From NCBI RefSeq assembly GCF_003428155.1, contig NZ_QLIR01000015.1, forward strand, positions 14,003 to 46,002: DNA of 32,000 nt, read 5' to 3'. Origin of the DNA: Fastidiosibacter lacustris. Lineage in GTDB: Bacteria; Pseudomonadota; Gammaproteobacteria; Francisellales; Francisellaceae. The notes beneath the pieces were generated by a model that saw only the letters and a program-made list of their open reading frames with translations, did not search any database and had not been told where the DNA came from. The translations under genes and the position numbers were made by a program. The number at the start of each line of letters is the position of its first letter. Positions within the stretch are counted from its first letter, which is position 1. Of the stretch, positions 15,753 through 31,845 are shown piece after piece.

Positions 15753-16706
15753 ATGGCATTAGAGCATTTATTGCATCCAACAACAGTGAATAATCAAGAA
15801 AGAATTGGCAATCAAGCAAAGATTACTTTAGAGCCTTTGGAGCGTGGCTTTGGTCATACCTTAGGTTTTTCGTTAAAGCAAATCATGTTACACGTTTTAT
15901 CAGGTGCATCGTTAACAAAAGTTAAATTTAACGATGGTGTGAATAGTGAGGTCAAGTTAGCAACAACTGAATCAGTTGAAGAGTTATTGCTTAATTTGCA
16001 AATCATTAAGTTTAAACTGGATTCAGCTCATACCACTGGTAATATAAGTATTAAATTATCAGGAAAAGCTCGTGAAGTATACGCTGCAGACTTAACCTTA
16101 TCAGAAGGTGTAGAGATTTTAAATCCTGATGTGCTTATTTGCCAATATGTAGGAAAAGATAAGCTTAGCATTGAAGGATGGATAGAGTCAGGTGCTGGTT
16201 ATAAACCTGCAAATCAGAACTTTATAGATGGTTACTTTATGTTAGATGCTTCTTTTTCACCTGTTGTCAGTCTCAATTACAACGTTGAAAACGCGCGTGT
16301 TGCACAAAGAACTGACTTGGACAAACTTATTTTAGATGTGCAAACAGATGGCAGCTTGACACCTTCGGAGGCATTGAGTTTAGCGGCACAAAAGATTCAA
16401 TCTCAAATGTCTAGAATTGTTGATGAAGAAGCATTAGCTGAACGTTTGCACATTGAAGAAGAACCAAAAATTGATCCGTTTTTATTAAAAACAGTAGAAG
16501 AGTTAGACTTAACTGTGCGTTCTGCAAACTGCTTGAAGTCTGAGAATATTCGTTATATTGGTGAGCTTGTTCAACGCACGGAATCTGAGCTTATGAAAAC
16601 ACCAAACTTTGGACGTAAATCTTTAAATGAAATTAAAGAAAAACTTTCTTCGTATGGATACTCATTAGGCACAATTGTTGGAGATTGGTCAAGGGATTTA
16701 ATATAG
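15753..16706 (+). CDS. rpoA: DNA-directed RNA polymerase alpha subunit, divergent second copy (RpoA2-type)
   Basis: [25 protein letters not shown] matches E. coli Rpo[26 protein letters not shown]. The C-terminal domain [48 protein letters not shown] matches the alpha-CTD. The gene is monocistronic and lies outside any ribosomal-protein operon. Confidence 0.9.
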
Positions 16707-17053: not shown

Positions 17054-17911
17054 TTACCTTAAAGCAATAAGCGCTCCAACACCACTGAACAAACATCCAA
17101 ATAGTAAATAAAAGGTAGGAGCAGAATCTCCAATGATTACTGAGGAAATACCGCCTATCGCGGGGAAAAGTGCTACCATATAGCTGCTTGCAGATGCTCC
17201 GATGCGCGCAACTAATTTAAGATAAAACATCCATGCAGTAAAAGAGGAAAAGACAATTAAAAACATCAAAGCCCCGAGGTAGGAAAAGGATATTGGCAAT
17301 GTAAAGCTCTGTTTTTGTATCAGACAAACCATAAGTGAAAATATAAAAGCGACGGCAAAACCAATGCTATTTGAATACATCGCATTCACACCACATCGTA
17401 CATTTCTTGCGGAGGCAACATCACCAATCGCCGTCAATAGCGTTCCAAGCAATGCAATGGCTATTCCCTTTAAATTGCTCACTCCAGCGCCATTCATTAA
17501 CAAAGGATAAACAAGTATGGAGACACCCATAATGCCCATCGAGCCTCCAACCAGAATTCTAGGATGAAGACGGTCTCCTAGACATATGCGAAGCGCAATT
17601 GGAGTCATAACAGTTTTGAGTGAAAATATCAACGTTACAAGTGCAGCAGAAACCCATATTGTCGCATAATACAGGCAAATATAACTCAAGGCTAGGTTGC
17701 ATATTCCAAAGCTCGCTATAGGGAGAAAATCCTGTCGAGAAAGCCTTCCCCTAGGTTTTATAAGATACAAAAAAGCAACAAACAATAAAACGGTTCCGCC
17801 CAATCGATACGTCAGCGATAATTCAAGGTTCACAGGGGTTCCTTGAATTTTGATGACGACAAAGTTCACTCCCCAAACAATGGCGCAAAAGGCGTACATA
17901 AAAACTGTCAT
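17054..17911 (-). CDS. EamA/DMT-superfamily transporter
   Basis: 285 aa, about 10 TM helices arranged as two EamA-like halves. Its ATG overlaps the stop of the upstream gene (ATGA, 17908-17911). Confidence 0.82.
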
Positions 17912-19140
17912 GCGTTTAAAAAATCCTGCTCGTGACTGAAAGAAATTCCAAAATAGTGAAAAACTTCCGTGAGTGCGAAAGCTAATTTCTCGATCTGCTC
18001 TTTGGTATGGTTTGGCGTCACGTTAACGCGAAAGCGCTCTGTGCCTATAGGAACTGTCGGTGAATTGATTGGCTGTAGATAGATATGATGTTGTTCTAGT
18101 AAACGCTTTGCAGCATCCTTGCATTTTTTTGCATCTCCAATCAACACGGGAAGAATATGTGTGCGACTTGATGCCATTATTGGAATATGTGCGCGAATTA
18201 GCGCATCCCTTAACGTATTGGTCTTCTGATGCAACACAATTCGTTCGTTATCTGATGATTTCAGATATTCAACGCTTGCATGACAAGCTGCAACAACCGC
18301 AGGAGGTAAGGACGTTGTAAAAATAAATCCAGGTGCAAATGAGCGAATAACATCAACAAGTAGTGATGAGGCTGCAATATATCCTCCAATGACTCCAATA
18401 CTCTTTGCCATTGTTCCCTGAATGAAATCTAACTTATTGGCAATTCCTAATTCAGCAGCAATGCCAGCACCGCGCGGTCCATAAATACCTATTGCATGCA
18501 CTTCATCAAGAAATGTTAACGCGTTATATTTCTTTGCAAGCGCTACAATCTTTTGAATTGGAGCAATATCACCATCCATGGAATATACCGATTCAAATAC
18601 AATAATTTTTGGTCGATCAAATGGTTGAGCTACAAGCAGTGCCTCTAAATGCTCAACATCATTGTGTCTAAACACCATTCTTTCAGCCTGAGTACTACGT
18701 ATCCCATTAATGATCGATGCATGGTTACGTTCATCAGAAAACACTATGCAGTCAGAAAGCAACCGTAGCAGACATTGTAATGTTGCATCATTTGCACCAT
18801 ATCCTGTGGGAAACACCAATGCGGCTTCTTTTCCATGCCACTCAGCAAGAGCAGATTCAAGCGCGGTGTAGTAAGAGTGTGTCCCACCGATATTTCTAGA
18901 ACCACCAGAGCCGGCGCCCAAAGATCGAATTGCGTCATGCATGGCTTCTGTCACGATATGATGTTGTGACATCCCTAAATAATCATTGCTGCACCAGACA
19001 ACAACCTGCTCTGTACTTTTTTGAGTTACTGATTGAGCTAACGGATATTGTCCGCGTATCCTATTGATGGTGACGAACTCTCGATACTGTCCACTTTCCT
19101 TCAAAGACTCCAGTTTTTGGCTGATAATTTTTGTATACAC
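17908..19140 (-). CDS. 5-aminolevulinate synthase (alpha-oxoamine synthase family, ALAS type)
   Basis: Aligns throughout with Rhodobacter-type ALAS: [71 protein letters not shown] (PLP lysine), [28 protein letters not shown]. Confidence 0.9.
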
Positions 19141-19803
19141 CTTGTAAAACCTTGTTTGCTTTTGTTATTTGAATAGTGCGGCGAATTAATATGCCCTTAA
19201 GGGGGGGGAGTCAAGCGGAAAATAATTCTGACTAGTCATAAGGGGTTCTGTCGCAGACTCAACAATTAGTTCATAATTTATACAAACAGTCATTCTCTGG
19301 ACATAATTATGCTGCGAGTGCATAGAACTGTTCATATATGGAAAAACTGTGAAAGGAAAATTAATACAAGTTTGCAAATGGTTGTACTCGCTTCATTAGG
19401 CTAATAGCACAGAAGAAACTTTGAACAGGCTCTAAAGTATGACACCACTAATTAATAGTTACTGGCGAAGAAAAATTGACTTTGTCATTATTAAGAAGGT
19501 TTTATGCGTGTTGCTAGCGATAACACGCAATTTCTTAGCATATTTCAAACTTCTGATATAGGCAAAATTTGTTTAATCAAAGATCGTCGTTAATAAATTA
19601 AAAGACTCTTGGCAACTTCAAAAACAATACATACGCTTTTTATTGATAGTGCTTATCTTAAGTTTTCTTTTTTAGCTTGATAAGCCAGTACTGATTGGTT
19701 GATTTTGGTCTCAATTATTATAATTTTTAATTAAGCTCATAAGTTTTGATTGGACTTAAATCACTGAATGCTATAAATGTGTGCTAACAAAATGTACTCT
19801 GTG

Positions 19804-20298
19804 TTACGCTTTTTCAACAATAATTTCTCGAGATTTTTTAGCACACTCTGGCTTCTTAGGTAACGTGATCCACAGCATTCCCTTTTTGAAAGAAGCCTTT
19901 GCTTTATCTACATCAACTGTTTCAGGCAAAAGTATACTACGCTCATATCTCCCATAACTAATTTCGCGCATCATATAGTTCTTATTTTTATCTTGTTTAG
20001 AGCTGGTTTTTTCACCTTTGATAGTTAAAATGCCATTATCGATTGAGACTTTGATGTCATTTTCACCCATACCAGGCATTTCAATTTCAACTTTAAATTG
20101 GTCATTATCATCCACGATATCAGTGGCGGGGTTAAGTGAAACGTTTTCAAAACGTTCGCTAGGAAAATGAAATGGTTCGAACCACTCATTAAAGTCACTC
20201 ATAACCTTATTGAGTTCATTTTGTAGTGACCAGAATGGGTTTTGCTTGCTTTGACTAATAGTAACAGGAATGTTTTTCTTTGTGCTTAAAAAATTCAT
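19804..20298 (-). CDS. Small heat-shock protein, Hsp20/alpha-crystallin family
   Basis: Alpha-crystallin domain (PATDIVDDNDQFKVEIEMPGMGENDIKVSIDNGILTIKGEK...GMLWITLPKK). The start is set at the Met preceded by GGAGG (20306-20310, reverse strand), not at the upstream Met of the tracked ORF. Confidence 0.9.
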   Translation of the reverse strand: MNFLSTKKNIPVTISQSKQNPFWSLQNELNKVMSDFNEWFEPFHFPSERFENVSLNPATDIVDDNDQFKVEIEMPGMGENDIKVSIDNGILTIKGEKTSSKQDKNKNYMMREISYGRYERSILLPETVDVDKAKASFKKGMLWITLPKKPECAKKSREIIVEKA

Positions 20299-20370
20299 AA
20301 TGCAACCTCCTATGTAATACCTAAGATTAATTAAGCATGACAAGTATCTTTTAGTTTTTAAAAGGCTGCC

Positions 20371-20384
20371 TTGACTAAAGTCAA
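20371..20384. promoter_or_regulatory. FNR/FixK-type operator candidate TTGAC-N4-GTCAA upstream of the Hsp20 gene
   Basis: ttgactaaagtcaa has perfect inverted half-sites. Its centre is about 80 nt upstream of the hsp20 ATG, downstream of the Crp/Fnr gene stop. Confidence 0.45.
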
Positions 20385-20472
20385 GTTGTAAGAAAAAAAT
20401 GATCTTTTTTTATTGTGTGAGTCAACATTATAGATGATAAATTAAGTCTTAAGAGGGTCGATTGGATTGCAT

Positions 20473-21186
20473 TTATCTCTCTGCCCTACAAGGAAAAGTT
20501 TTGGGATAATGATAACAAACATATTGATTTAAGTTAAAACGATCAGGGATATTAATATGTTCATTGTTAACTTGTATCCCACATTGCTTACTAAGCTTGC
20601 CTAAAGCACGAGAAAATGTTTCAGGTTTCATACCTAGGCGCAACGCTAATAAAGCTTTATTATAAGGTAGTTTTAAACTTATATTTATTTGCTTTTTTGT
20701 ATTGTCACATAATTGTAATAGAAAACTGCCAACTCGTTGCATGGCATTTTGAGTAGACAAATGTTCAATGTGTGTAGTTAACTGTCGTTGCTTTTGCAAA
20801 GTAGCTTGCAAAAAGTTTAACGATAAGTTGTGATCAGACAATATCAGCTGTTTTAATGATTGAATGGGTAAGGTAAAGATTTCAAGATGTGAAATAGATT
20901 GTGCTTCATAAGTATACTCTTTACTCGATGTAAAGAGGAAGTTTTCACCACAATAATGACTTTGAGTAAGCACATCGACAATGATTTCTTCCCCGTCAAT
21001 GCTTTGTTTATATAACTTAATACTACCAGTTATGACATATAAAAAAGTTTGTTGGCTTTGGGCGTGGTTAAAAACAATGGCATCTTTTTTATAAACGTAC
21101 CGTTTAGCGATTTGTGATAGTCGTTTTAAGCTTTCTTGTGAAGCTTGTGAAAACAAGCCAATGCATTGAAAGAAGTCTACTTGCAT
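20473..21186 (-). CDS. Crp/Fnr-family transcriptional regulator
   Basis: N-terminal cNMP-binding-like beta-roll and C-terminal HTH with the FNR-class recognition motif E-x-x-S-R (LGMKPETFSRALGKL). No N-terminal Cys cluster, so it is probably not an O2-sensing [4Fe-4S] FNR. Confidence 0.88.
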   Translation of the reverse strand: MQVDFFQCIGLFSQASQESLKRLSQIAKRYVYKKDAIVFNHAQSQQTFLYVITGSIKLYKQSIDGEEIIVDVLTQSHYCGENFLFTSSKEYTYEAQSISHLEIFTLPIQSLKQLILSDHNLSLNFLQATLQKQRQLTTHIEHLSTQNAMQRVGSFLLQLCDNTKKQINISLKLPYNKALLALRLGMKPETFSRALGKLSKQCGIQVNNEHINIPDRFNLNQYVCYHYPKTFPCRAER

Positions 21187-21335
21187 AACAATTTACCAAA
21201 ATCATGATCAGAATATCAAACTAGCTGTTTCTATATTGTTATTATTTTACATTGCAAACTATATGAAATTGGTAATAAAGTGTATTCTATTTAATATAAA
21301 TAAATAGTAGGGTAATATCTTAAATAATCTTGTTT

Positions 21336-22595
21336 TTAAATGTTCCTCTTGGTTAATTTAGAATTTTGCTGAGGGATAAAAGCCAGAATAACAGCGATGA
21401 TCAAACCAATTGTAATAGGTAAAAGTGCCGTTTGGAAACCAGATAGTGTATTTGTAGTATATTGATAAGCAGATTGATACCAACTTAAAATCCAACCAAT
21501 TAATGGCTGCAATAGCGGACCACCTAGACCAATGATAATCATGTTAGTAAAACCCATTGCCATGCCTTGTGCATCTGGATGTACAATTTTTTCGACACTA
21601 CCAAACGGAAGAATATAAGCACCTGATCCGCATCCTAATAAAAACAAGACAATATTAGCAATGCTAAATTGCATGGGTAAGTACAAAAGCAGTGAAAAGC
21701 TAATAAATGCAATGATACTGAAGAGTTGCATCACGAGCTGACATCCTATCTTGCTAGCAAGCCAACCGCTTAGAGCGGCACCGACAGCTGCACCAATAAA
21801 AACAAATGCAGTGGCATATGCGGCATAATTTACATGATCTGGATATAGAGTTTGTAAAAAGCCAATACACCACAAAGAGGCAAAGGCACTAATAATGGTA
21901 AAAATTAAACCGCCAAATAAGTTATAACGCCAAACGTTTAGGTTTTTAAGTAATATAATAAAGTGTTTTAATATGTGAGGTTCACAATTTGTTTTTTGTG
22001 ATTTTGTTGTATTTTTACAAATTTCATGTTGAGTGGATTTTACAAAGATAAGAATAAGAAGTGCAAGGATAAACCCAATTATCGCACAAATAATCATAGC
22101 AATACGCCAGCCATAACTTTGAATCCAAATTTCCAAGAAATAATCTCCAAGGGCTCCTCCTAGCATCCCCATCATTTCAATAAGTCCTGCAAGGAGGGTA
22201 AATCTTTGAGGGTACCAACGTGCCGCTAAGTACATTGCACAAGCCACACCTGGCGCACTTGCGATTCCCATGATAATGCGAGAAATATTGGCACTTCCAA
22301 AGCATTCAGAAAAAGAAAAGCCTAAAGTACTGACTGCAAGTATAAAGGTTGAGACAAACAATGTCTTTTTAGGACCAAATTTATCAATAATAAAGCCTGC
22401 TGGAATTTGTAACAGAATGTAAGGATAAAAAAAGGCTGATGATAGAAAGCCAATTTGTATCAAGTTAAGATATAAGTCTTGCATTAAAGTATGCACCATT
22501 AAGCTCGTTGAGCCTTGTAATAAAAATTGGTACAAAACAAAAAAGCCGCCTAGAAAACAAATCCAAGCAGCTATGAGATTACGATGACTAATCAT
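21336..22595 (-). CDS. MFS transporter
   Basis: 419 aa, 12 predicted TM helices, MFS motif-A-like FIIDKFGPKKTLF. Substrate not inferable. Confidence 0.85.
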   Translation of the reverse strand: MISHRNLIAAWICFLGGFFVLYQFLLQGSTSLMVHTLMQDLYLNLIQIGFLSSAFFYPYILLQIPAGFIIDKFGPKKTLFVSTFILAVSTLGFSFSECFGSANISRIIMGIASAPGVACAMYLAARWYPQRFTLLAGLIEMMGMLGGALGDYFLEIWIQSYGWRIAMIICAIIGFILALLILIFVKSTQHEICKNTTKSQKTNCEPHILKHFIILLKNLNVWRYNLFGGLIFTIISAFASLWCIGFLQTLYPDHVNYAAYATAFVFIGAAVGAALSGWLASKIGCQLVMQLFSIIAFISFSLLLYLPMQFSIANIVLFLLGCGSGAYILPFGSVEKIVHPDAQGMAMGFTNMIIIGLGGPLLQPLIGWILSWYQSAYQYTTNTLSGFQTALLPITIGLIIAVILAFIPQQNSKLTKRNI

Positions 22596-22675
22596 AGATC
22601 CTAATTTACGTTAAGAATATCATTTCTAATATGCTTCTTTATACTGAAAAAAAAGGTAAATGTCGAAATATGTTT

Positions 22676-22689
22676 TTGACAATAGTGAA
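22676..22689. promoter_or_regulatory. Second FNR-type box candidate (TTGAC-N4-GTGAA) upstream of the MFS gene
   Basis: ttgacaatagtgaa is one mismatch from the inverted repeat at 20371-20384. Its centre is about 87 nt upstream of the MFS ATG at 22595. Confidence 0.3.
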
Positions 22690-22896
22690 TGTACGAAGGA
22701 AAAAAATGGAAAAACCAATTTAAGTAATGGACCTAAACTAGCTTTTGAATCCATAATTATAGGCTTGACAAAAACTTTTTTATCTTGTCTATCTTGAGTA
22801 TTGGCTTAATTAACTGAGCTTTTGCGCTAAAATCAAATGCGTACTTTGGCTGCTTTTGTGTATAATAGGGTTACTTTTTCTCAATCACCATAACGC

Positions 22897-23964
22897 ATGA
22901 AATTAAAAAAAATTATCTTATATTCATTCACCATTTTTGGCGTTACAACACTAACAAGTTGTGGTTCAACCAGTGATTTTTTCCGTAACCGTGACTTTGA
23001 TTATGCACGCCAACCTGTAGAGCAAAACAAGCCACTTGAAGTGCCAAAGTCTGTGTCTGACAACCCTAATATTCATCCAGCACTTGTCGTGCCAGAAGGG
23101 CAAACAAGTTTTACAACTAATGAGTTTAAACAAGCACAAAGCGCTTTATTGCCACCTAATTTTGGATCAGGCTATAACGTGAGTCTTATTGAACAAAAGC
23201 AACTTTACGTGGTTTCTACTAAACTTGATTATGATAAAAACAATCAAGCAAAGCTTATAATTTATGAGCCATATAAGTTAGTATGGAAAATTATTGAAGA
23301 TGCTTTACAAAATAAGGTATCGACAATCGTAATTGAAAAAACAGACAAAGACAATAGTCGGTTTGTGATTAAAGATAAACTGTCAGCTAAATCATACTAT
23401 GTATTTATTGAACCTATTAAAAATGAATTTAGACGTGCCCAGCTTTCATTGTTTGAAATAGATGAAAAGCCAGCAACAGATAAACTATCTCAGCAATTGG
23501 TCGAAGCGATTGATAAAGCGATAAAGGGTCAACAAGTTGATGAAGCAATGCTCATTAATGCACAATTTGGCTTTATTAACACAAATAGTGGTTTGAAGTT
23601 CCAACTTTATACCGACGATACACTCGCGTCTATCGTATTTGTAGGTGATGAGCAAACCATAAATAAGACTTTAAAACAGGCAATTAATAATGCTGGTTTT
23701 AAATACATAGCGTATGATGAAAAACAGCAAACAATTTTGATTGAGGATAGCAAAGACCAAAGCTATTTATTGTATTTATACCCTTATACACAAAACGGAT
23801 CAATTTTCAGTGATATGAGTAATTGGCGCAACTTCTTTAGAGAAGAGCAGCAACAATTAAGAGTATCTTTATTTGATATAAAACAAGTTCTTATTCCCGT
23901 TGAAGTCGCTAAACTCATTTTAGCAAACATTGCAAGTCATATTCCATTAACATCCGCACAATAA
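22897..23964 (+). CDS. bamC: Lipoprotein, BamC (NlpB)-like outer-membrane assembly factor
   Basis: Lipobox LTS/C (MKLKKIILYSFTIFGVTTLTSCGS). Size and position immediately upstream of purC mirror the E. coli dapA-bamC-purC arrangement. Weak by-eye similarity to the BamC N-terminal region. Family assignment is moderate only. Confidence 0.55.
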   Translation: MKLKKIILYSFTIFGVTTLTSCGSTSDFFRNRDFDYARQPVEQNKPLEVPKSVSDNPNIHPALVVPEGQTSFTTNEFKQAQSALLPPNFGSGYNVSLIEQKQLYVVSTKLDYDKNNQAKLIIYEPYKLVWKIIEDALQNKVSTIVIEKTDKDNSRFVIKDKLSAKSYYVFIEPIKNEFRRAQLSLFEIDEKPATDKLSQQLVEAIDKAIKGQQVDEAMLINAQFGFINTNSGLKFQLYTDDTLASIVFVGDEQTINKTLKQAINNAGFKYIAYDEKQQTILIEDSKDQSYLLYLYPYTQNGSIFSDMSNWRNFFREEQQQLRVSLFDIKQVLIPVEVAKLILANIASHIPLTSAQ

Positions 23965-23989
23965 ATGAAGTAGAAAAAGGCTAAATAAA

Positions 23990-24700
23990 ATGAAGAAGTC
24001 ATTAATATACCAAGGAAAAGCAAAATCAGTTTATCAAACAGACAATAGCAATGAAGTTGTGATTGAATATCGAGATGATGCTACTGCTTTTAATGGTGTG
24101 AAAAAGGAAGCCTTAAAAGATAAAGGTCATGTCAATAACTTATTTAATGCCTATATTATGCAAAAACTTGAGGAGAGAGGAGTAAAAACACACTTTATTA
24201 AAGTGCTATCCGAAACAGAAAGTTTGATGAAAAAGCTACAGATGATTCCTGTTGAATGTGTTGTTCGTAACTATGCTGCAGGTGGAATTTGTAAGCGCTT
24301 GGGACTTGAAAAAGGCATGAAATTTGAGCGTCCTGTTTTTGAATTTTTTTTGAAAGACGATGCCTTAGGTGACCCTATGATCAACACATCACACATCTTG
24401 ACTTTTAATTGGGCAGCGCCTGAGGAAATAAAATATATGCGCAAGGTGACTTTTACAGTTAATGATATTTTGTCTAAGTTATTTGATGATGCGGGGTTGC
24501 TATTAGTTGATTATAAGCTTGAATTTGGTCGCTTTAATGGTGCGTTATTGTTGGGTGATGAGTTTAGTCCTGATGGCTGTCGGCTATGGGATAAACAAAC
24601 AAAAGATGTATTTGATAAAGACCGTTTTCGTCAGGATTTAGGTGACGTGGTAGGGCACTATAAAACCGTTGCTAAACGTATTGGGCTTACGTTGATATAA
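23990..24700 (+). CDS. purC: Phosphoribosylaminoimidazole-succinocarboxamide (SAICAR) synthase
   Basis: LIYQGKAKSVYQTDN...VIEYRDDATAFNG and LVDYKLEFG...LGDEFSPDGCRLWD are canonical PurC motifs. 236 aa. Confidence 0.96.
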   Translation: MKKSLIYQGKAKSVYQTDNSNEVVIEYRDDATAFNGVKKEALKDKGHVNNLFNAYIMQKLEERGVKTHFIKVLSETESLMKKLQMIPVECVVRNYAAGGICKRLGLEKGMKFERPVFEFFLKDDALGDPMINTSHILTFNWAAPEEIKYMRKVTFTVNDILSKLFDDAGLLLVDYKLEFGRFNGALLLGDEFSPDGCRLWDKQTKDVFDKDRFRQDLGDVVGHYKTVAKRIGLTLI

Positions 24701-24703
24701 CTA

Positions 24704-25498
24704 ATGCGTTTTGTTTTGTATAAATTTTTATTGTTCGCATTGATTTGTTTTTTAGGAATAACCTTAAGTTATGCGTGGCAATTAAACACCGTTAGTCAAC
24801 ATAAATTAGTAAATGCTGGTGTATCTTTTTATGAGTTTGCAGCTATTGAAAAGAAAACCTTTCCTATATTAGTTGATGTTGTTGTTCTTAAAAATAATCA
24901 ATATCACGCGGGTTTGTTTATCCAACGTGAGGATAATATTCAAAGTACACTAGATATAGCATCATATAACAATGCTTTTTTAGCCACAAATGGGGGCTAT
25001 TATCGTGAGGGTTTTTTAGTCAATGGGCTTTTAATTGATCAGGGAAAACTCAGATTGGGATTAGTTGAAAATAGCTTGCTATCTTCAGTTATAACGATAG
25101 ATAAAAATGGTCAAATAAGTATTTTAGACAAAGATCAAAACTATAAAAATGCATATTATGCGTTTCAAGCAGGACCAGTTCTCATGAAAAATAATGAGAT
25201 ACAAAAAGTTGAAAACACACGTATTTCAAAAAGAGTAATTTATGCAGAAACTACGAATAATCATTTAATGGTATTTTTTATTGATAGTGCAACTTTGCAA
25301 CAAAGTGCTAATGTCATAAAGGCAATTACAGCTCAACTTAATTTCCATGTTACACGAGCAGTAAATTTTGATGGAGGTATAGCAGCAGCTTTTGTATTGC
25401 GTCAAATTGTAACACCAATTATTTATCCAGAGTACGTTCCAGTAAAAAGTGTAGTGTATTTCAAACTTACTGAAAATGAAATAGGCAAAAATCGATAA
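24704..25498 (+). CDS. Phosphodiester glycosidase (DUF2233) family protein, membrane-anchored or secreted
   Basis: N-terminal hydrophobic anchor. ATNGGYY, AFQAGPVL and AVNFDGGIAAAF resemble the conserved blocks of the DUF2233/NAGPA-like family. Confidence 0.65.
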   Translation: MRFVLYKFLLFALICFLGITLSYAWQLNTVSQHKLVNAGVSFYEFAAIEKKTFPILVDVVVLKNNQYHAGLFIQREDNIQSTLDIASYNNAFLATNGGYYREGFLVNGLLIDQGKLRLGLVENSLLSSVITIDKNGQISILDKDQNYKNAYYAFQAGPVLMKNNEIQKVENTRISKRVIYAETTNNHLMVFFIDSATLQQSANVIKAITAQLNFHVTRAVNFDGGIAAAFVLRQIVTPIIYPEYVPVKSVVYFKLTENEIGKNR

Positions 25499-25677
25499 AA
25501 AAACTTAATTATTATTTGAAATATTTGATAGAGATCAGATTTGATGAATATGACTAAGGACAACAGATGATAATCACATGCTGCGAGACACGGAAAGCGT
25601 TATTGCCGCTAATCAATCAACATATAAAATTATATTTAGAAATGAAAAATGAGTATGAGAAAATTAAAAATGCGTGA

Positions 25678-25851
25678 GTCCAGTTAGTTAAAGGCTTTAT
25701 CAAGCAGTTTGGCGTAGATCTTATTGCAGGTGTTTTAGGTGATCGTGAGTTTATTGGTGGAGTATGGTTAAAGTTACTCAATGATCATGGAATTCCATTT
25801 GTTATTCAGGTAAAGCAAAACCAATTAACCACCATTGCAAAGGAGGCTTGA
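25678..25851 (+). pseudogene. IS4-family-like DDE transposase fragment
   Basis: A 57-codon open stretch with no start codon: VQLVKGFIKQFGVDLIAGVLGDREFIGGVWLKLLNDHGIPFVIQVKQNQLTTIAKEA*. The DREF...W...L...IPFVI(R/Q)xK pattern is typical of the region around the second catalytic Asp of IS4-type transposases. Confidence 0.4.
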
Positions 25852-25997
25852 AGTGGATGTTTCGGCACTGCTTTATGGCGTAAAAGTACATGAGATTAAA
25901 AAATATCAAAGATAATCAGTTGTAAAATCTTTCATATAATTTGCGATAAACCAATAACTTTTAAATGCGATTCCTCTGATAAACTATTCTTTTTGTG

Positions 25998-26026
25998 TTG
26001 ATTTATATTTGCTTTTTCAATATTAT
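25998..26026 (+). promoter_or_regulatory. Candidate sigma-70 promoter of the MetRS-like/hydroxylase/cupin operon
   Basis: TTGATT (25998-26003), 17-nt spacer, TATTAT (26021-26026), 34 nt upstream of the ATG at 26060. Confidence 0.35.
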
Positions 26027-26059
26027 ACATTTAGTTACTTAAATTAACTAAAAACTAAA

Positions 26060-27593
26060 ATGTTTCTGAATAATAATTGCAAAAAGTACCTTTTAGTTTC
26101 TGCCATTCCAACCCCAAATGGAATGGTTGCATTTGGGACATATTGGAGGGCCATTTTTAAAGTTAGACGTAATCAAAAGATCAAATCAGCAAATTGGCAA
26201 CGTTGTCTTCTTTTGTAGTGGCTCTGATAGCTATGAGTCTCATGCTTTACTTGCCGCACATAACCAAAAAAAATCAATTGAAGCGCTTTGCTTTTTTTAT
26301 CATGATCAAATTGTAAATGACTTGAAAACCATGTTAATTGATATGGATCTTTTCTTGAATCCATTGGATATCAAGTATAAAAATCATTTGACTGAAATAA
26401 CACAACAGCAAGTAAAGCAATTGGTTGATATGGGCAAAGCTGTTGAAATTAATGAACAGTACCCTTTTTCTAATAACTATGGATTTCTACCTCCCAGTTT
26501 TATTGCTGGTATCTGCCCAGAGTGCAAGCACGCTACTTCTGGCTTTATTTGTGAAACATGTGGATTTACCTATAGACCAGAAGAAATGACAGGCGTTCAC
26601 TGTCGCTCAGAGTTTAAGTTAACAGAAATGAAGAGAGTTAGTACGCTATTTCTCAAAATGGATAAACCACAGCTGCAGAAGGCGCTTGTGGCTTCTTATG
26701 TCCCGAAAAACTCTCTTGAATTGACACAAAGTTTTCTAGCCAAGAATGACTACACACGATTAACCCTTCCAATTAAGTGGGGGATTTCAGCTTCGCATGA
26801 ACGAGTTTATTATAGCTATGGTACATTTTTTTCTTACTACACAGCATTGAGAGAGTCTTGTGTTAAAGCTTTAAATTTAAAAACTCTACCCTTTACTGAG
26901 GATGCGGACGTTAATACAGTGGTCAGTTTTGGTTTTGATAACACATTGACTTTTTTGGTAGAGACATTAAATCAAGCTCTGTCATTAGGTCATAAAGGTT
27001 TTGATTGCTACTTGTCAAATAAATTTTTAACATTAAATGGAGATAAGTTTTCTACCAGTAGAAACCATGCTATATGGGTTCACAAGTTACCTAAAAATAT
27101 TAGCATCGATTTGATTAGATTATTCTTGCTCAAAGTTAATGCTGATCAGGATCAGAGTGATTTTAATCTGCAGGAATTTGTAAGTTTCTATAATTGGATT
27201 GCTTGTATAATAAACGCAAAAATAATTAGTAAATTAAAAGTTCCAAATTTCTATTTGCCTAGACAAGAGCACAACAAACATAGTAGCGGCCTGTTAAGAT
27301 TATGGGAGCAGAAAAAAATGGATGCAATCCCCAGTAATTATAGTGGAAATAAGTTTTATTTGGATATTATAAGCTGGCTGGAAGGCGACGTTTATGAAAG
27401 TGAGTATATGGAATGGTTGCACGGTATCGCGATTCTTTGCTATCCGGTAATGCCAGTGTTGAGTCAAAGAGTGTGGGATTTTCTTGGAGGTACCGGAGTA
27501 CCATCATTAGAGAATTGCAATCACTTTTCTTCGGAGCCATTCTCAATGAGTGAGATTGAGCAAATTAATATTTCTGAAATCAAGGTAGGCTAG
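26060..27593 (+). CDS. Methionyl-tRNA-synthetase-like class I ligase (hydrazine-synthetase MetRS-like component candidate), with a 1-nt frameshift near 26122
   Basis: The tracked ORF (26118-27593) begins MEWLHLGH (HIGH motif at 26130-26141). It has KFSTS (the KMSKS equivalent, 27045-27059) and a CPEC...CETC zinc knuckle (26514-26561), as in MetRS. The missing first beta-strand is encoded in another frame from the ATG at 26060: MFLNNNCKKYLLVSAIPTPNG. Joined, KKYLLVSAIPTPNG-WLHLGH mirrors E. coli MetRS [20 protein letters not shown]. Confidence 0.85.
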
Positions 27594-27595
27594 TA

Positions 27596-28870
27596 ATGAA
27601 TAAGTATGACATAGTTGGCATAGGAGCTGGTCCTGCCAATCTGAGTTTATCTGCGTTATTGGGTGTGAGAGCCCCTGAATTAACGGCGCGATTTGTCGAA
27701 AGGCAGAGTAGCTTTAATTGGCATCCTGGCATGCTGCTACCAGAGGCTAAGCTACAGGTGTCTTATCTGAAAGATTTGGTAACTTTGGTAGATCCAACAA
27801 ATCCATATTCTTATCTTAATTACCTGCATTCAAAAGGCTGTTTATATCAATTTATCACTGCCAATTTCGAAGCAGTTAGCCGTAGTGAGTTTGCTGATTA
27901 TTTACAATGGGTTTTTAACAGTCTAAATAATGTAGACAAAGGCTCTGAGGTGACTGACCTTGATTATAATGGTGAGCATCTTAAAGTAACGACTTCTACA
28001 GGAGATATTTTATTAACTAAAAACCTTGTTTTAGGAACTGGGCTGCGACCCTATATTCCCAAGTGTTGTCGGAGTATTATTAGCGATACCGTGTTTCACA
28101 ATAGTGAGTTTATGTTTAAAAAGCGAAACTTTAAAAACAAGACATTGGCCATTATTGGGGGCGGTCAGAGTGCGGCAGAAATAGTTCAATCTTTAATAAG
28201 TGATGAAGAAAACATGCCCGCAAAAATTTTGTGGTTTTCGAAAAGATTAAATTTTTTGCCTATCGATGACCCCCCATTCACAAACGAGCTATTTGTTCCC
28301 GCGTACTCTCGACACTTTTTTTCGTTGTCATCCGCCAAAAAAGAAAGATTATTGGCGCAACATAAATTAGCGAGTGATGGAATTTCAGAGTCCACTGCTG
28401 TATTGATATATAGGCGTTTGTATGAGCTGAAATATGTGAAAAAACTCCCTCAGATTTGTTATTTATTGCCATCTCATGAGTTGCATGACGTGAATCAACT
28501 CGATGACCGATATTCAATTTCGGTTTCTGATTTGGAAGCAGAATTAGATAAGCAATACAATGTAGATGGAATAATATTGTGCACAGGTTATCACTATCAT
28601 GAACCACATTTCTTGAAAAAAATTTCAAATCAATTAAATAGGGATAAGCATGGTCTTATAGTTGATGAGGACTATCGCTTGCATTGGGAAGGAGATAAAA
28701 ACTGCGCCATCTACATTCAAAATGGTGCACGACATACGCATGGTGTTGCCGATCCCAATCTGAGCTTGCTTGCTTATAGGAGTGCAAGAATCATCAATCA
28801 AATTTCAGGGAAAGAGGTTTATCAAAATGTTGAAGGTGATTGCCTGATTCAATGGGGCTTGGTTCAATAG
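27596..28870 (+). CDS. L-lysine N6-monooxygenase-type flavin N-hydroxylase (IucD/PvdA family)
   Basis: Collinear with E. coli IucD: GIGAGPANLS (FAD), FNWHPGMLLPEAKLQVSYLKDLVTLVDPTNPYSYLNYL, GGGQSAAE (NADPH), DGISESTAVLIYRRLYE, ILCTGY, HGVADPNLSLLAYRSARIINQ. Starts 2 nt after the upstream stop. Confidence 0.92.
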   Translation: MNKYDIVGIGAGPANLSLSALLGVRAPELTARFVERQSSFNWHPGMLLPEAKLQVSYLKDLVTLVDPTNPYSYLNYLHSKGCLYQFITANFEAVSRSEFADYLQWVFNSLNNVDKGSEVTDLDYNGEHLKVTTSTGDILLTKNLVLGTGLRPYIPKCCRSIISDTVFHNSEFMFKKRNFKNKTLAIIGGGQSAAEIVQSLISDEENMPAKILWFSKRLNFLPIDDPPFTNELFVPAYSRHFFSLSSAKKERLLAQHKLASDGISESTAVLIYRRLYELKYVKKLPQICYLLPSHELHDVNQLDDRYSISVSDLEAELDKQYNVDGIILCTGYHYHEPHFLKKISNQLNRDKHGLIVDEDYRLHWEGDKNCAIYIQNGARHTHGVADPNLSLLAYRSARIINQISGKEVYQNVEGDCLIQWGLVQ

Positions 28871-28884
28871 CTGAAGAGAGATTT

Positions 28885-29211
28885 ATGGAAATTTTAGAAA
28901 AACAATTTTTAGAAAATCTTCCGTTAGGTATAGAAGTTCAAGAGGTTTTATTTGCTGGCAATATACAGGGAGTTGCTCCTTTTAAGTCTTCTTTCTTTAC
29001 GGTTCAGCCAGGCGTTACTACGCCATTCGATTGCCATGAAGTAAGAGAACTATGGTTAATCGTCAGTGGTACGGGACGTGTAACGTGTGATAAAAGTGTT
29101 TCTGAGGTAAAAGAAAAGGATGCGGTGTACTTTGATTCTTTTCAGCGGCATTCGGTAGAAAATATTGGTAATACTCCGCTTATTATTATTTCGATTTGGT
29201 GGAACCCATGA
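28885..29211 (+). CDS. Small stand-alone cupin-domain protein (hydrazine-synthetase cupin component candidate)
   Basis: 108 aa from the Met preceded by GAAGAGAG. Cupin motif 1 reads PFDCHEVRELWLIVSGTG (C-H-x3-E, 29032-29049). Motif 2 reads AVYFDSFQRHSVEN (H-x3-N, 29149-29163). Confidence 0.8.
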   Translation: MEILEKQFLENLPLGIEVQEVLFAGNIQGVAPFKSSFFTVQPGVTTPFDCHEVRELWLIVSGTGRVTCDKSVSEVKEKDAVYFDSFQRHSVENIGNTPLIIISIWWNP

Positions 29212-30251
29212 AAGAATATCAAAGCGATTTATTAATTATTGGTTGTGGGATTGTAGGGCTGACAACAGCAACACTCGCTGCAATACGTAACCCAAGCCTT
29301 TCAATGACTCTGGTAGATAAAAATTTAATTGGTTTTGGAGCATCAGGGTATTCTGCTGGCTTCTCGACACCACTTGCAAAAACGGACACAGAGAATGGAA
29401 AAAAATTGATTATTGAGGGTAGCTCTGTAATGCAAGAACTCCAAGACCATATTGATCTGAAGTTAAAAAAGAAACAGGCATACTACATTGTAGGTGCTAC
29501 AAGCATAAATAATTTTCAGAAATATTATATAGCATCTGACTTGGAAGATTCTAATGATTGTGCATTAAAAACCAAATGTTCTATAGGGAATTATTTAAAC
29601 ATCCCAACGGATAAGAAAATTTATTTTTCTAGGCAAAGCGCTCACTGTGCTGATTTGCCAATGCTGATGAACCAAATGTCATTGTTTCTCAGAAGAAAAG
29701 CCCATATGATTTTTGAATGCTCTCCGATTCATCACATGGATAAAGAGCATATTACATTGGAGAGCGGGGTGAGCTTAAAAAGCAAAAAAAACCTTTTTAC
29801 AACTGGTCCTTGGCAGTATGGGGAGGCACTTCAAAAAACTAATCAGGTGAAAATAAAAAAGGTTGCAGCATTGCATTTAGCTTCTATACCTGCTGAGGAT
29901 GATCCAGCAATTATTTTTTTTGATGAGAAAGCTTTTTTATTGCCCTTGCCCGAAAAAGGTTATTGGCTGATGAGCTTCACTTCAGAAGATTGGGATGTAG
30001 CACCTAAGCAACAGCTGACATTTTCAGAGAAAGATTTAGAAATCGCTCTTGGGATTCTGAGGAAATATTCAAACGAACTGGGTGATTTATTTTCAGGTGG
30101 AAGAGTGTTTTGCGATCATTATTCGCCATCTGGGGAGATTTCAATTTCAACCCTGTCAAAAGCAAACCTTCTTGTTGAAGGAGCATCCGGATCTGGATAT
30201 CGATTCTCTTATGCTATCGCTAGCCAAATATGTAGAGAGTTTTTAACATGA
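29208..30251 (+). CDS. FAD-dependent oxidoreductase, D-amino-acid/glycine oxidase (DAO) family
   Basis: N-terminal dinucleotide-binding motif DLLIIGCGIVGLTTA (GxGxxG at 29241-29258). About 347 aa. Its ATG overlaps the cupin stop (ATGA, 29208-29211). Confidence 0.85.
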   Translation: MKEYQSDLLIIGCGIVGLTTATLAAIRNPSLSMTLVDKNLIGFGASGYSAGFSTPLAKTDTENGKKLIIEGSSVMQELQDHIDLKLKKKQAYYIVGATSINNFQKYYIASDLEDSNDCALKTKCSIGNYLNIPTDKKIYFSRQSAHCADLPMLMNQMSLFLRRKAHMIFECSPIHHMDKEHITLESGVSLKSKKNLFTTGPWQYGEALQKTNQVKIKKVAALHLASIPAEDDPAIIFFDEKAFLLPLPEKGYWLMSFTSEDWDVAPKQQLTFSEKDLEIALGILRKYSNELGDLFSGGRVFCDHYSPSGEISISTLSKANLLVEGASGSGYRFSYAIASQICREFLT

Positions 30252-30760
30252 AAGAAAAGTCTGTGGTTTTTATTTTTATAGGTGCATTATTGCTATCATT
30301 TTCATATGGTGCTTTTTTCCTGTTACCTTTGTTTATAGAGCACTTGGGTGGGGCTCAAGATGCTACAGGGTTTCTCTTGGGAGTTACTGGAATTGGAACT
30401 ATCTTTGCCGTTATTGTTAGTAAATTAATGTTAAAAAAAATGAAAAGTAATTTAGTAACTGTAATTGGTTGTATCTCATATACTGTTGGAATTTTATTAT
30501 TTGTTTTTGTTGTACATTCTATGGGACTTAAAATTATTCTAGCTTCTCTACTGTTAGGTATAGGTTGGGGGTTTTATTACAATTCAGCACCATATTCCCT
30601 TTCTTTATTTGCAAATAATACCAATAGAAGTGTGTTTTTTAGTTATTTATCAGCTTTTAGCGTTCTAGGTTCTGGTGTGGCACCTGTTGCAACGCATTTT
30701 TTTGGAAGGACCAAATGGATTTTCAATATTTATTTTTTATTGCGGGTATTGCAAGTTTAG
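30248..30760 (+). CDS. MFS transporter, N-terminal half (gene split by a frameshift in a T7 tract)
   Basis: Six TM-like segments. Its ATG overlaps the oxidase stop (ATGA, 30248-30251). The frame is lost after ...VAPVATHFF at the T7 run 30697-30703. Confidence 0.8.
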   Translation: MKEKSVVFIFIGALLLSFSYGAFFLLPLFIEHLGGAQDATGFLLGVTGIGTIFAVIVSKLMLKKMKSNLVTVIGCISYTVGILLFVFVVHSMGLKIILASLLLGIGWGFYYNSAPYSLSLFANNTNRSVFFSYLSAFSVLGSGVAPVATHFFGRTKWIFNIYFLLRVLQV

Positions 30761-31443
30761 TTGCTGCAGGTTGTTTTTATTTAGCAAGACCTGAATTCAA
30801 AGAATTTCCAAAAAATGAAACACATTGGAAAACATTTTCTTTGATTATAAAATCAATGGCTCTATACCCTCTCATTATGGTATTTTTGGGAGCCTGTGCG
30901 TTTACCATTATGGTGAATTTTCAGTCAACATACGCAAATAGTATTGGAATGAATTATTCATCTTTTTATTTAATTTATTCCCTTTCTGTTGTTTTATCGC
31001 GACTTTTGTTGGGTAAGCGTCTTTCTCAATATAATCAGTATAAAGTTGCAATTGTGTTGTTAATCCTAATGGTGATAAGTTTGACCTCATTCTTGTTTTC
31101 AAGTGACAGTGTTTTGTTGTATTGTATTAGCTCAGCTTTATTTGGCATAAGTTATGGTTTAGTATATCCGACAATACAGGCTATTGCTGTTAATGTTACA
31201 CAACCAAATCACCGGGCGGATGTGATTACCTTTTTTTCTTTATCATATTTTATTGGTGTCTATGCCTTTCCTCCAATAGCTGGATTGGCTATCGTGGCTT
31301 TTGGCTATACGAGTGTTATTATTATAATTTCTACCTTAGCTTTTATTGAGTTGATATTGGCACTTGTTTTACTAAAATTATCTATTTTTTCGATTAATCC
31401 AGAATCTCTGTACACGAAGAAAGATTTGCAAAGTGCTGAGTAA
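30715..31443 (+). CDS. MFS transporter, C-terminal half (continuation of 30248-30760 in another frame)
   Basis: This frame is open from 30661. With one extra T in the 30697-30703 run, the two parts join as ...ATHFFWKDQMDFQYLFFIAGIASL..., giving a 12-TM MFS protein of about 400 aa. Confidence 0.8.
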   Translation: MDFQYLFFIAGIASLVAAGCFYLARPEFKEFPKNETHWKTFSLIIKSMALYPLIMVFLGACAFTIMVNFQSTYANSIGMNYSSFYLIYSLSVVLSRLLLGKRLSQYNQYKVAIVLLILMVISLTSFLFSSDSVLLYCISSALFGISYGLVYPTIQAIAVNVTQPNHRADVITFFSLSYFIGVYAFPPIAGLAIVAFGYTSVIIIISTLAFIELILALVLLKLSIFSINPESLYTKKDLQSAE

Positions 31444-31504
31444 GACGTTATTTTTTCTTGATTTGCACAACATGAAAAAGCATCTCAATCAGCTAACGAA
31501 TAGT
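31404..31504. repeat. Copy B of the repeat shared with 16891-16990 (MFS 3' end plus 59-bp downstream flank)
   Basis: 31446-31504 matches 16932-16990 at 54 of 59 positions. Gapped similarity continues upstream into the last codons of the MFS gene. Confidence 0.7.
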
Positions 31505-31518
31505 CTAAAGAAAATTTC

Positions 31519-31776
31519 GGTAGTGTTATTATCTAGCAAATTTGTTTTTATAATTTCAAATAAAAAATAGCGAAAATTGATGTACGCTGCAGGAATTACA
31601 ACTCAATAAAGACAGTTGAAGCAGGTAATAACCAATTGAAATCTAGTCCAAATGGTGCGCAAAGACACCGTTGCCTAGATTGTGGCGAATACTTTCAACT
31701 TGAATATAAAGCACTAGGTCGGCTGTCCAAGACAAAAGAAAGAATTCTTGATATGTGTAGCAATGGTAGTGGTATT
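31519..31776 (+). mobile_element. IS1-family element, 5' fragment (second, truncated copy; start codon lost)
   Basis: It begins with GGTAGTGTTATTATC, the same left-end repeat as at 10034. The InsA-like frame reads (ATA)AKIDVRCRNYNSIKTVEAGNNQLKSSPNGAQRHRCLDCGEYFQLEYKALGRLSKTKERILDMCSNGSG. The ATG is mutated to ATA at 31567-31569. Homology to the 9498-9986 copy stops near 31776. Confidence 0.75.
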
Positions 31777-31845
31777 CATGGTTGAACTATTCTACAGCCA
31801 TGACTGGAAGAGCTATTCAAAATATATTAGAGTTCTTTCCAAACC

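Follow-up and report, generated by a model that had tools for sequence, protein, structure and literature searches.

A probable split cupin/MetRS-like hydrazine-synthetase cassette, compact and probably decaying, in Fastidiosibacter lacustris

Split cupin/MetRS-like hydrazine-synthetase systems have been characterised before, as have the four-gene FuzDEFG cassette and enzymes from Ralstonia and Burkholderia, and from roughly 800 to more than 1,200 such enzymes are already on record from genome mining. In the hydrazinoacetic acid modules of Streptomyces (Spb38/Spb39/Spb40, Tri26/27/28 and AzsL/AzsM/AzsN) the cupin and MetRS-like parts are fused, and the genes lie inside large tailoring clusters. 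The fuscazine cluster of Microbispora fusca has instead four separate proteins, FuzD/FuzE/FuzF/FuzG (flavin N-monooxygenase, standalone cupin, flavin oxidoreductase and MetRS-like protein), as part of a larger cluster that makes a tripeptide and also encodes a dioxygenase and two ATP-grasp ligases (PMC13149037). Rhodococcus jostii RHA1 pairs the cupin RHS1 with a standalone MetRS-like protein, and in its pathway glutamate is used and cleavage falls to a saccharopine-dehydrogenase-type (PyrL-like) enzyme instead of a DAO-type oxidase (PMC8664883). The Ala/GlyHS of Ralstonia pseudosolanacearum, a standalone PyrN-C homologue with a cupin, shows the split architecture in a proteobacterium (bioRxiv 10.1101/2025.08.22.671884). 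With standalone pairs and proteobacterial enzymes characterised (PMC8664883; bioRxiv 10.1101/2025.08.22.671884; PMC13149037), the view taken in the initial annotation of this DNA, that the characterised systems come from actinomycetes, is no longer current. Our literature search turned up no publication that connects hydrazine synthetases with Fastidiosibacter, Francisella or Legionella.

We examined a 32-kb stretch of DNA from the lake bacterium F. lacustris, hereafter the window. At 26060-31443 on its forward strand are five close-packed open reading frames (ORFs), in the order MetRS-like gene, N-hydroxylase, cupin, DAO-family FAD oxidase and MFS transporter (Table 1). Sequence comparisons make it highly likely that these represent a horizontally acquired, self-contained five-gene split cupin/MetRS-like hydrazine-synthetase cassette that is now probably decaying. 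The hydroxylase gene starts 2 nt downstream of the MetRS-like gene (TAG 27591-27593, ATG 27596). The next junction (TAG 28868-28870, ATG 28885) spans 14 nt that contain the Shine-Dalgarno-like GAAGAGAG ahead of the cupin start, and ATGA overlaps join cupin to oxidase (29208-29211) and oxidase to MFS gene (30248-30251). A check of ORFs and junctions found this same-strand layout and spacing exactly as first described.

Table 1. Features of the cassette and its flanks (window coordinates)
Feature	Position	Strand	Basis or remark
Upstream spacer	25499..26059	.	Transposase debris: DDE_Tnp_1-like fragment 25690-25848
Putative MetRS-like aminoacyl-hydroxylamine synthetase gene, standalone PyrN-C homologue, frameshifted	26060..27593	+	PDB and homologue comparison
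Predicted flavin-dependent amine N-hydroxylase, Lys/Orn/diamine N-monooxygenase family, intact	27596..28870	+	Pfam PF13434 Lys_Orn_oxgnase, 3.6e-102
Predicted standalone zinc cupin, RHS1/PyrN-N homologue, 108 aa	28885..29211	+	Ungapped alignment to 5UQP, E 5e-21
Predicted Spb39/Tri27/AzsM-type FAD-dependent oxidase, DAO family, 347 aa, intact	29208..30251	+	Pfam DAO and homology to P0230
MFS transporter gene, putative exporter, split; 398 aa when repaired	30248..31443	+	Pfam MFS_1, sister assembly
IS1-like fragment, 219 bp	31609..31827	.	Shortly downstream of cassette

The described systems each resemble this locus in part. The Fuz cassette has the same four separate proteins, yet its gene order is unlike, identity is only about 28-43%, and where Fuz belongs to a larger cluster only an MFS gene is added here. 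RHA1 shares the split and has identical cupin zinc ligands, but between the MetRS-like proteins identity is only about 23%. The Ralstonia locus is without a Spb39-type oxidase or a matching MFS gene and includes a GNAT, and its hydroxylase closely resembles diamine hydroxylases (330 bits to DfoA). The Streptomyces modules have the same three activities and the Spb39-type oxidase family. The initial annotation had recognised a hydrazine-synthetase enzyme set, a reading that is borne out by sequence, each of the four enzymes being similar to its counterparts beyond the superfamily level.

The MetRS-like protein (Pfam tRNA-synt_1g, 1.7e-37) has HLGH (26130-26141), KFSTS (27045-27059) and the CxxC pairs CPEC (26514-26525) and CETC (26550-26561), all at the positions originally reported. 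With MetG it shares the class I Rossmann core, a HIGH-type motif and one CxxC/CxxC zinc knuckle, but it has KFSTS for KMSKS and is nearer PyrN-C than any solved MetRS. Its best solved relative is PyrN-C, the domain that acts as aminoacyl-hydroxylamine synthetase in a hydrazine synthetase (PDB 9L8V/9VQ4; E 3e-25, residues 4-358), against 8e-20 for the MetRS of Pyrococcus abyssi and 7.7e-9, across residues 4-158 only, for that of Escherichia coli, which upholds its assignment as hydrazine-synthetase-type. HLGH and KFSTS align with 147-HLGH-150 and 458-KFSTG-462 of PyrN, the G-x-D-N adenylate/substrate motif is present as FGFDN, and one of the two PyrN zinc clusters is kept; PTPNGxLHLGH is found in all homologues. 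In profile-profile alignment the split clade matched the didomain hydrazine synthetases with probability 100% (E 6.9e-91, 476 columns).

The eight-residue pocket code maps cleanly at positions 1-4 (A, I, D, E) and 7-8 (N, F), whereas positions 5-6 shift by one residue between methods, reading S, T by phmmer to PyrN-C and Y, F by profile-profile alignment to the AzsN type. The R. pseudosolanacearum protein P0044, 32% identical over nearly the full length, has D..E and N...F in common with it but differs at positions 1, 2, 5 and 6, and the glycine code TPDQWMNH of the Streptomyces modules is not shared. Since A-I-D-E-(Y/S)-(F/T)-N-F matches no published code, the acceptor amino acid could not be read from it and glycine cannot be asserted; glycine and lysine, named as substrates in the initial annotation, were assumptions and not findings. 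The hydroxylase is 36-54% identical to hydroxylases of other hydrazine-synthetase loci. Its nearest structures, topped by diamine hydroxylases, were considered as a guide to its substrate, and this was dropped since the ranking is no different for an AzsL-type lysine hydroxylase, DesB again coming first.

The cupin (Cupin_2, 8.8e-14) has RHS1 (PDB 5UQP), a zinc cupin that forms N-N bonds, as its best solved relative. Its predicted zinc ligands D49, H51, E55 and H89 (codons 29029-31, 29035-37, 29047-49 and 29149-51) correspond to D63, H65, E69 and H103 of RHS1, whose ligands are known to be Asp/His/Glu/His (PMC8664883); the essential Glu is kept. The oxidase (DAO, 4.3e-16) matches P0230 with E 3.8e-31 and 27% identity over 89% of its length. 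In a Streptomyces cluster of the azaserine/thrazarine type, P0230 has the place of the Spb39 homologue AzsM/ThzM, and it is through homology to P0230, and P0230's gene position, that the oxidase is likened to the Spb39 type. For the cupin and oxidase, then, similarity is specifically to hydrazine-synthetase parts, as had been proposed. The PDB holds no sequence relatives of the oxidase at E<0.01; its AlphaFold model (pLDDT 92) has sarcosine, N-methyltryptophan and glycine oxidases as closest folds, making the modelled fold of secondary-amine oxidase type. As to which C-N bond it would cleave, the sequence fits Spb39-type or Apy10-type enzymes alike.

We infer the chemical steps, substrates, product and export role by analogy with the described systems. 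The flavin N-hydroxylase would produce a hydroxylamine, most likely N6-hydroxylysine or N5-hydroxyornithine. The MetRS-like enzyme would adenylate a free amino acid with ATP, a small acceptor being plausible, and transfer it to the N-OH oxygen. The zinc cupin would then convert the unstable O-aminoacyl-hydroxylamine to an N-N bond, and the sarcosine-oxidase-like FAD enzyme would oxidise a C-N bond of the conjugate, releasing a free hydrazino acid that the MFS protein may export. There are no tailoring genes beside the four enzymes and MFS transporter, which would make the free hydrazino acid, or its conjugate, the final product.

We examined the neighbourhoods (within 6 kb) of 80 genomic homologues of the MetRS-like gene, all in genomes other than that of F. 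lacustris. The hydroxylase is the most frequent partner (70/80), ahead of the cupin (59) and oxidase (50), and 40 homologues have all three. Two Microbispora loci were among the homologues recovered in the genome scan, and many Legionella species carry related hydroxylase/MetRS-like/cupin triads. The five-gene order is intact in one locus (L010), and is found also in L002 and L003, with unrelated flanks. The four enzymes plus MFS gene without tailoring genes were seen only in these and F. lacustris. With its boundaries fixed by comparing these three lineages, the cassette is a very compact version. Gene content, homology, conserved catalytic motifs and co-occurrence are in this account direct observations, as are the lesions described next.

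Lesions were judged against a sister assembly that is 99.7% identical. The hydroxylase, cupin and oxidase are intact, but the MetRS-like gene, sound as to the motifs and layout first described, is not a single ORF. An extra T at 26124 splits it: the frame from ATG 26060 (MFLNNNCKKYLLVSAIPTPNG) stops at 26215, and the long ORF begins in another frame at 26118. RefSeq annotates only this 491-aa ORF (WP_116964401.1), compared with 510 aa for the repaired gene. The frameshift costs the first 22 codons, including the PTPNG segment; in the equivalent segment of PyrN, Ser138, Phe139, Thr141 and Asn143 contact substrates, and Thr141 and Asn143 are among the mutated residues, all variants of which lost most or all activity. 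The MFS gene proposed by the initial annotation is likewise present but split, into ORFs 30248-30760 and 30715-31443 (WP_116964405.1 and WP_116964406.1), by a 1-nt deletion leaving a T7 run at 30697-30703 where the sister assembly has T8. A phrase in that annotation, "frame-corrected operon", suggests that its author had noticed frameshifts. As written in the present assembly, the predicted pathway cannot run. The sister assembly has a different lesion, E50* in the hydroxylase. The related metagenomic copy L002 is frameshifted in the MetRS-like gene as well as in the hydroxylase, and L003, whose contig begins inside the MetRS-like gene, has the same hydroxylase frameshift. These differing lesions suggest that the cassette is decaying under relaxed selection, and it is probably a dead copy of a known, widespread system.

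It is also conceivable, though we think it unlikely, that the living strain has an intact, working cassette, and that the two frameshifts and the sister's stop codon are sequencing or assembly errors. One lesion does lie in the T7/T8 homopolymer, the other three genes are whole, and every catalytic motif is conserved. Between the two assemblies there are 20 nonsynonymous and 6 synonymous changes, a ratio to be expected from random errors or from very recent mutations, and as it is about 3:1 even in housekeeping purC, it fits errors in at least one of them. Both purC differences are presumably derived in the sister assembly, judging from PurC conservation, so that E50* might be an error too. 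Yet the insertion at 26124 is outside any homopolymer, and both coding indels fall inside the 5.4-kb cassette while the 22 window ORFs outside it all look intact. The hydroxylase moreover has Pro226 where five homologues have Ser, and the related lineage has frameshifts of its own, the hydroxylase one recurring in a second assembly; these points favour a genuinely decaying cassette.

Highly improbable is a pathway to a hydroxamate siderophore or another N-hydroxy amine, with the MetRS-like, cupin and oxidase genes accessory or unrelated. The hydroxylase does fall in the siderophore N-monooxygenase family (best solved relatives DesB, DfoA and FbsI, with KtzI and MbtG also matched), and siderophore loci commonly have MFS exporters; however, the three partner genes match N-N-forming components specifically and co-occur with the hydroxylase across phyla, and we confirmed throughout the cassette and the rest of the window the initially noted absence of IucA/IucC, NRPS, acyltransferase and TonB-dependent receptor genes. 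Even harder to credit is that the MetRS-like gene encodes a real methionyl-tRNA synthetase, whether housekeeping or a spare/resistance copy. Besides the tRNA-synt_1g match, NCBIfam "methionine--tRNA ligase" models score up to 330 bits for this ORF and 364 for the intact sister protein, and Legionella and Ralstonia relatives are annotated as MetRS. All NCBIfam MetRS scores are nevertheless below cut-off (551 for the best-scoring model; 101 vs 336 for metG TIGR00398). The two models that match best in fact represent hydrazine-synthetase partners, and the best-scoring, NF008863, is passed by a Legionella hydrazine-synthetase-type protein. Pfam found no match to an anticodon-binding domain, KFSTS is as in PyrN, and a sole metG could not tolerate a frameshift at codon 22 in a cultured isolate.

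While no new mechanism is revealed, the hydrazine-synthetase cassette extends the host range of cupin/MetRS-like hydrazine synthetases to Fastidiosibacteraceae (Thiotrichales), and offers a worked example of a biosynthetic cassette caught decaying, with different lesions in closely related genomes. Being so compact, it lends itself to heterologous expression, and to the question of whether a free hydrazino acid can serve as a final exported natural product. A more speculative and rather doubtful extension is that the minimal cassette makes and secretes a free alpha-hydrazino acid as end product, possibly a small reactive antimetabolite (e.g., a PLP-enzyme inhibitor) that aquatic or amoeba-associated gammaproteobacteria turn on competitors or hosts; in that case a cost or a lost niche would lie behind its repeated independent inactivation, and the Legionella triads would point to N-N chemistry yet to be explored in intracellular bacteria.

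Scanning the window for Rfam families and tRNAs gave no match. Promoter and terminator scans gave fewer matches than in shuffled controls, and a weak promoter-like site in the upstream spacer (25998-26026) matches no better than chance. The downstream IS1-like fragment is missing from the sister assembly, where it falls in an alignment gap, and is 88% identical to an IS1 transposase gene fragment elsewhere in the window (9778-9952).

Five ORFs are packed on the + strand between 26060 and 31443, and Pfam recovered all five domain types from them: a MetRS-like protein, an N-hydroxylase, a cupin, a DAO-family FAD oxidase and an MFS transporter. The gaps and overlaps described in the initial annotation were reproduced at each junction (table below), and its "Francisella-like" label is fair for this host (Gammaproteobacteria; Thiotrichales; Fastidiosibacteraceae). 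Its proposal that the genes form a hydrazine-synthetase system appears correct from sequence comparison, with the parts and their linkage in agreement.

Junctions within the cassette and transposase remnants on either side of it
Feature	Position	Strand	Basis	Remark
Gap, 2 nt	27594-27595	+	ORF reading	
Gap, 14 nt	28871-28884	+	ORF reading	holds Shine-Dalgarno-like GAAGAGAG
ATGA overlaps	at 29208 and at 30248	+	ORF reading	
DDE_Tnp_1-like fragment	25690-25848			upstream of cassette
IS1-like fragment, 219 bp	31609-31827			just downstream of cassette; missing from sister assembly

The MetRS-like protein had been put forward as an aminoacyl-tRNA synthetase paralogue recruited to hydrazine synthesis, and it matches such enzymes better than true MetRS. 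Its top solved relatives in a PDB comparison are 9L8V, 9VQ4, 9VQJ and 9VR2 (E 3e-25, residues 4-358), all entries for PyrN-C, the part of the pyrazomycin hydrazine synthetase that acts as O-aminoacyl-hydroxylamine synthetase (bioRxiv 10.1101/2025.08.22.671884); true MetRS scores lower (P. abyssi, E 8e-20; E. coli, 7.7e-9, with only the first 158 residues aligned). The motifs claimed for it, HLGH, KFSTS and CPEC...CETC, were found. HLGH, KFSTS and FGFDN align with PyrN 147-HLGH-150, 458-KFSTG-462 and Gly418/Asp420/Asn421, and of the two Cys4 zinc clusters in PyrN one is retained. Profile-profile alignment of 59 split homologues (cupin and MetRS-like as separate proteins) with 48 didomain hydrazine synthetases (both fused) gave a probability of 100% and E 6.9e-91. 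No NCBIfam MetRS model reaches its cut-off with the window protein, and a domain search found no anticodon-binding domain in it.

Two NCBIfam 'methionine--tRNA ligase' equivalogs do capture relatives. NF008861 spans the full length of P0044, the standalone Ralstonia MetRS-like protein (1147 bits, cut-off 633), a type of R. pseudosolanacearum enzyme characterised as an Ala/Gly hydrazine synthetase in a 2025 preprint, along with a standalone Asn enzyme of Burkholderia ubonensis (bioRxiv 10.1101/2025.08.22.671884). NF008863 is exceeded (662 against 551) by P0018 of Legionella steigerwaltii, whose gene adjoins hydroxylase and cupin genes. Both models appear in fact to describe hydrazine-synthetase partners, so the MetRS names in RefSeq are probably wrong for such proteins.

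The assignment of the cupin and the oxidase to the same system holds as well. The top solved relative of the 108-aa cupin in the PDB is 5UQP (E 5e-21, ungapped), which is RHS1 of Rhodococcus jostii, shown to be an N-N-forming zinc cupin (PMC8664883); D49, H51, E55 and H89 match the RHS1 ligands Asp63, His65, Glu69 and His103. The oxidase, proposed to be of Spb39 type, has no sequence relative in the PDB; it matches P0230 (E 3.8e-31), from a Streptomyces locus ordered hydroxylase, DAO, cupin-MetRS-carrier protein, NRPS, AMP-ligase, carrier protein, acetyltransferase. The azaserine/thrazarine clusters have the same arrangement (L-M-N-O-P-Q-S), their L, M and N genes being homologues of spb38, spb39 and spb40; P0230 occupies the place of the spb39 homologue. 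The AlphaFold model of the oxidase (pLDDT 92.4) has as nearest folds monomeric sarcosine oxidase, N-methyltryptophan oxidase, proline dehydrogenase and glycine oxidase, enzymes whose substrates are N-substituted amino acids and whose reaction oxidises the C-N bond, as would fit the proposed cleavage step. The hydroxylase matches PF13434 (3.6e-102), carries GxGxxN and GGGQSA motifs, and is 36-54% identical to hydroxylases from other hydrazine-synthetase loci.

By homology with characterised systems we infer five steps: an amine would be N-hydroxylated; an amino acid would be adenylated with ATP and passed to the N-OH oxygen; the zinc cupin would rearrange the ester to an N-N bond; FAD-dependent C-N oxidation would free a hydrazino acid; and the MFS protein would export it. 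At the eight pocket positions of the published code the window protein has A-I-D-E-(S or Y)-(T or F)-N-F, the two in the centre varying with alignment; this differs from the published glycine code TPDQWMNH and equals no other published code. A small amino acid is a plausible substrate, because the characterised enzyme most closely related to the window protein, the Ala/Gly one of Ralstonia, has D, E, N and F of the pocket code in common with it. Diamine enzymes top the list of the hydroxylase's solved relatives; an AzsL-type lysine hydroxylase ranks them alike, so this ranking does not discriminate and was dropped as a guide to substrate. In R. pseudosolanacearum, the hydroxylase beside the standalone MetRS-like gene (L007:6613-8001) scores 321-330 bits against the diamine hydroxylases DfoA/DesB/FbsI and 148 against the lysine enzyme MbtG. 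N6-hydroxylysine served as hydroxylamine in published assays of this Ala/Gly type; the native one may be different, because the hydroxylase is far nearer the diamine enzymes.

Species-representative genomes were scanned with the MetRS-like protein as query, yielding more than 570 loci with relatives. No more than 6 kb from the MetRS-like gene, 70 of the 80 best loci have a hydroxylase homologue, 59 a cupin and 50 the oxidase; 40 have the complete trio. Among the hosts are some ten Legionella species, Ralstonia, Trinickia, Burkholderia, Paraburkholderia, Pseudomonas, Bradyrhizobium, Bacteroidota and many actinomycetes. The identical five-gene order, with homologous MFS, was found elsewhere only in a metagenomic locus (L010), where the set is unbroken, and in L002/L003, whose cassette proteins are 57-65% identical to those of the window. 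The five genes behave as a single, clearly bounded unit, since L002 has flanks unlike those of the window: genes for ankyrin/U-box and SidC_N proteins, a type typical of intracellular bacteria.

Smaller and larger relatives were also seen. The ten or so Legionella species have a MetRS-like, hydroxylase and cupin triad (L014-L016, L020, L022, L023, L026, L031, L056), preceded by a GntR gene and followed by a GNAT gene in L. steigerwaltii. In a related gammaproteobacterial MAG (L011/L012) an Orn/Lys-type decarboxylase gene lies immediately upstream, which suggests a diamine-derived hydroxylamine. An ENA metagenome contig (L004:5911-14815) encodes a MetRS-like protein 40% identical to ours with a hydroxylase, DAO, a 423-aa protein with N-terminal cupin, ATP-grasp ligase, MFS, GNAT and NUDIX; its product is probably a tailored hydrazine.

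Two of the five window genes, MetRS-like and MFS, are interrupted. Every MetRS-like homologue compared has some 20 N-terminal residues ending in PTPNGxLHLGH; in the window this N-terminus (MFLNNNCKKYLLVSAIPTPNG) lies in the frame of ATG 26060, and LHLGH onward in a different one, leaving a 491-aa ORF (26118-27593) with the exact sequence of WP_116964401.1 of Fastidiosibacter lacustris, named 'class I tRNA ligase family protein'. The lost segment holds the equivalents of PyrN Ser138, Phe139, Thr141 and Asn143, which touch ribose, amino acid and hydroxylamine; Thr141 and Asn143 are among the residues mutated in PyrN, where all variants lost most or all activity. The 491-aa product as written should be inactive. 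The MFS gene is broken into two ORFs, 170 and 242 aa long. A sister assembly (GCA_024208055.1), 99.7% identical across 12.4 kb (19206-31608), lacks a surplus T found at 26124 and has T8 for the window's T7 at 30697-30703; its MetRS-like protein (510 aa, …PTPNGRLHLGH…) and MFS gene (398 aa) are uninterrupted. Its hydroxylase has a stop at codon 50 (E50*, G-to-T at window 27743), so that any product would be without the N-terminal FAD-binding GxGxxN segment.

A real caveat is that these lesions may be sequencing errors in an intact cassette: one lies inside a homopolymer, and the assemblies differ in coding sequence by 20 nonsynonymous and 6 synonymous changes, two of them at conserved purC positions, the ratio that sequencing errors would yield. 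This ratio fits errors in one assembly or very recent divergence; the cassette accounts for nine substitutions (8 nonsynonymous, the stop codon included, and 1 synonymous) and flanking genes for 12:5. Polarised with homologues, derived changes fall on both sides: S226P, in a DDSPFTN motif, in the window, and P337L and E50* in the sister. L002 has frameshifts in its MetRS-like gene (near residue 310) and hydroxylase (near residue 80-91); the second assembly L003 repeats the hydroxylase lesion, its contig opening inside the MetRS-like gene. The MFS lesion, the derived hydroxylase proline and the differing lesions in the sister and L002 fit relaxed selection, and on balance we favor genuine pseudogenisation of the cassette as the probable explanation.

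Split cupin and MetRS-like pairs were reported in 2021, among them RHS1 and gene pairs of several genera (PMC8664883); the 2025 characterisations followed the mining of 830 NCBI homologues whose genes lie together with those for a hydroxylase and a cupin (bioRxiv 10.1101/2025.08.22.671884); and 2026 brought the characterisation of FuzD/E/F/G, a split cassette of four genes, with an estimate of >1,200 members for the family (PMC13149037). Our literature search found no paper tying the family to Fastidiosibacter, Francisella or Legionella, nor any on the Legionella triads or the L011/L012 locus. The window cassette is apparently a decaying example, not seen before, of an already known system type, of note for its unusually minimal layout of enzymes plus exporter and its presence in host-associated gammaproteobacteria.

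Elsewhere the window has the sequence of an ordinary chromosome, with mfd, secB, era, glucokinase, an rpoA-like gene, purC etc., and some IS debris. Transposase debris lies on both sides of the cassette; the downstream fragment shares 88% identity with a section of the truncated IS1 transposase ORF located at 9498-9986. The EamA-family transporter and class I/II aminotransferase genes at 17054-19140 (- strand) have 41-42% GC, against ~35% elsewhere in the window, and may be a foreign insert. The full-length rpoA-like gene (15753-16706, +) is flanked by 2OG-Fe(II) oxygenase and EamA transporter genes, outside a ribosomal-protein operon; as Francisella has two rpoA paralogues, it may be a second rpoA copy.
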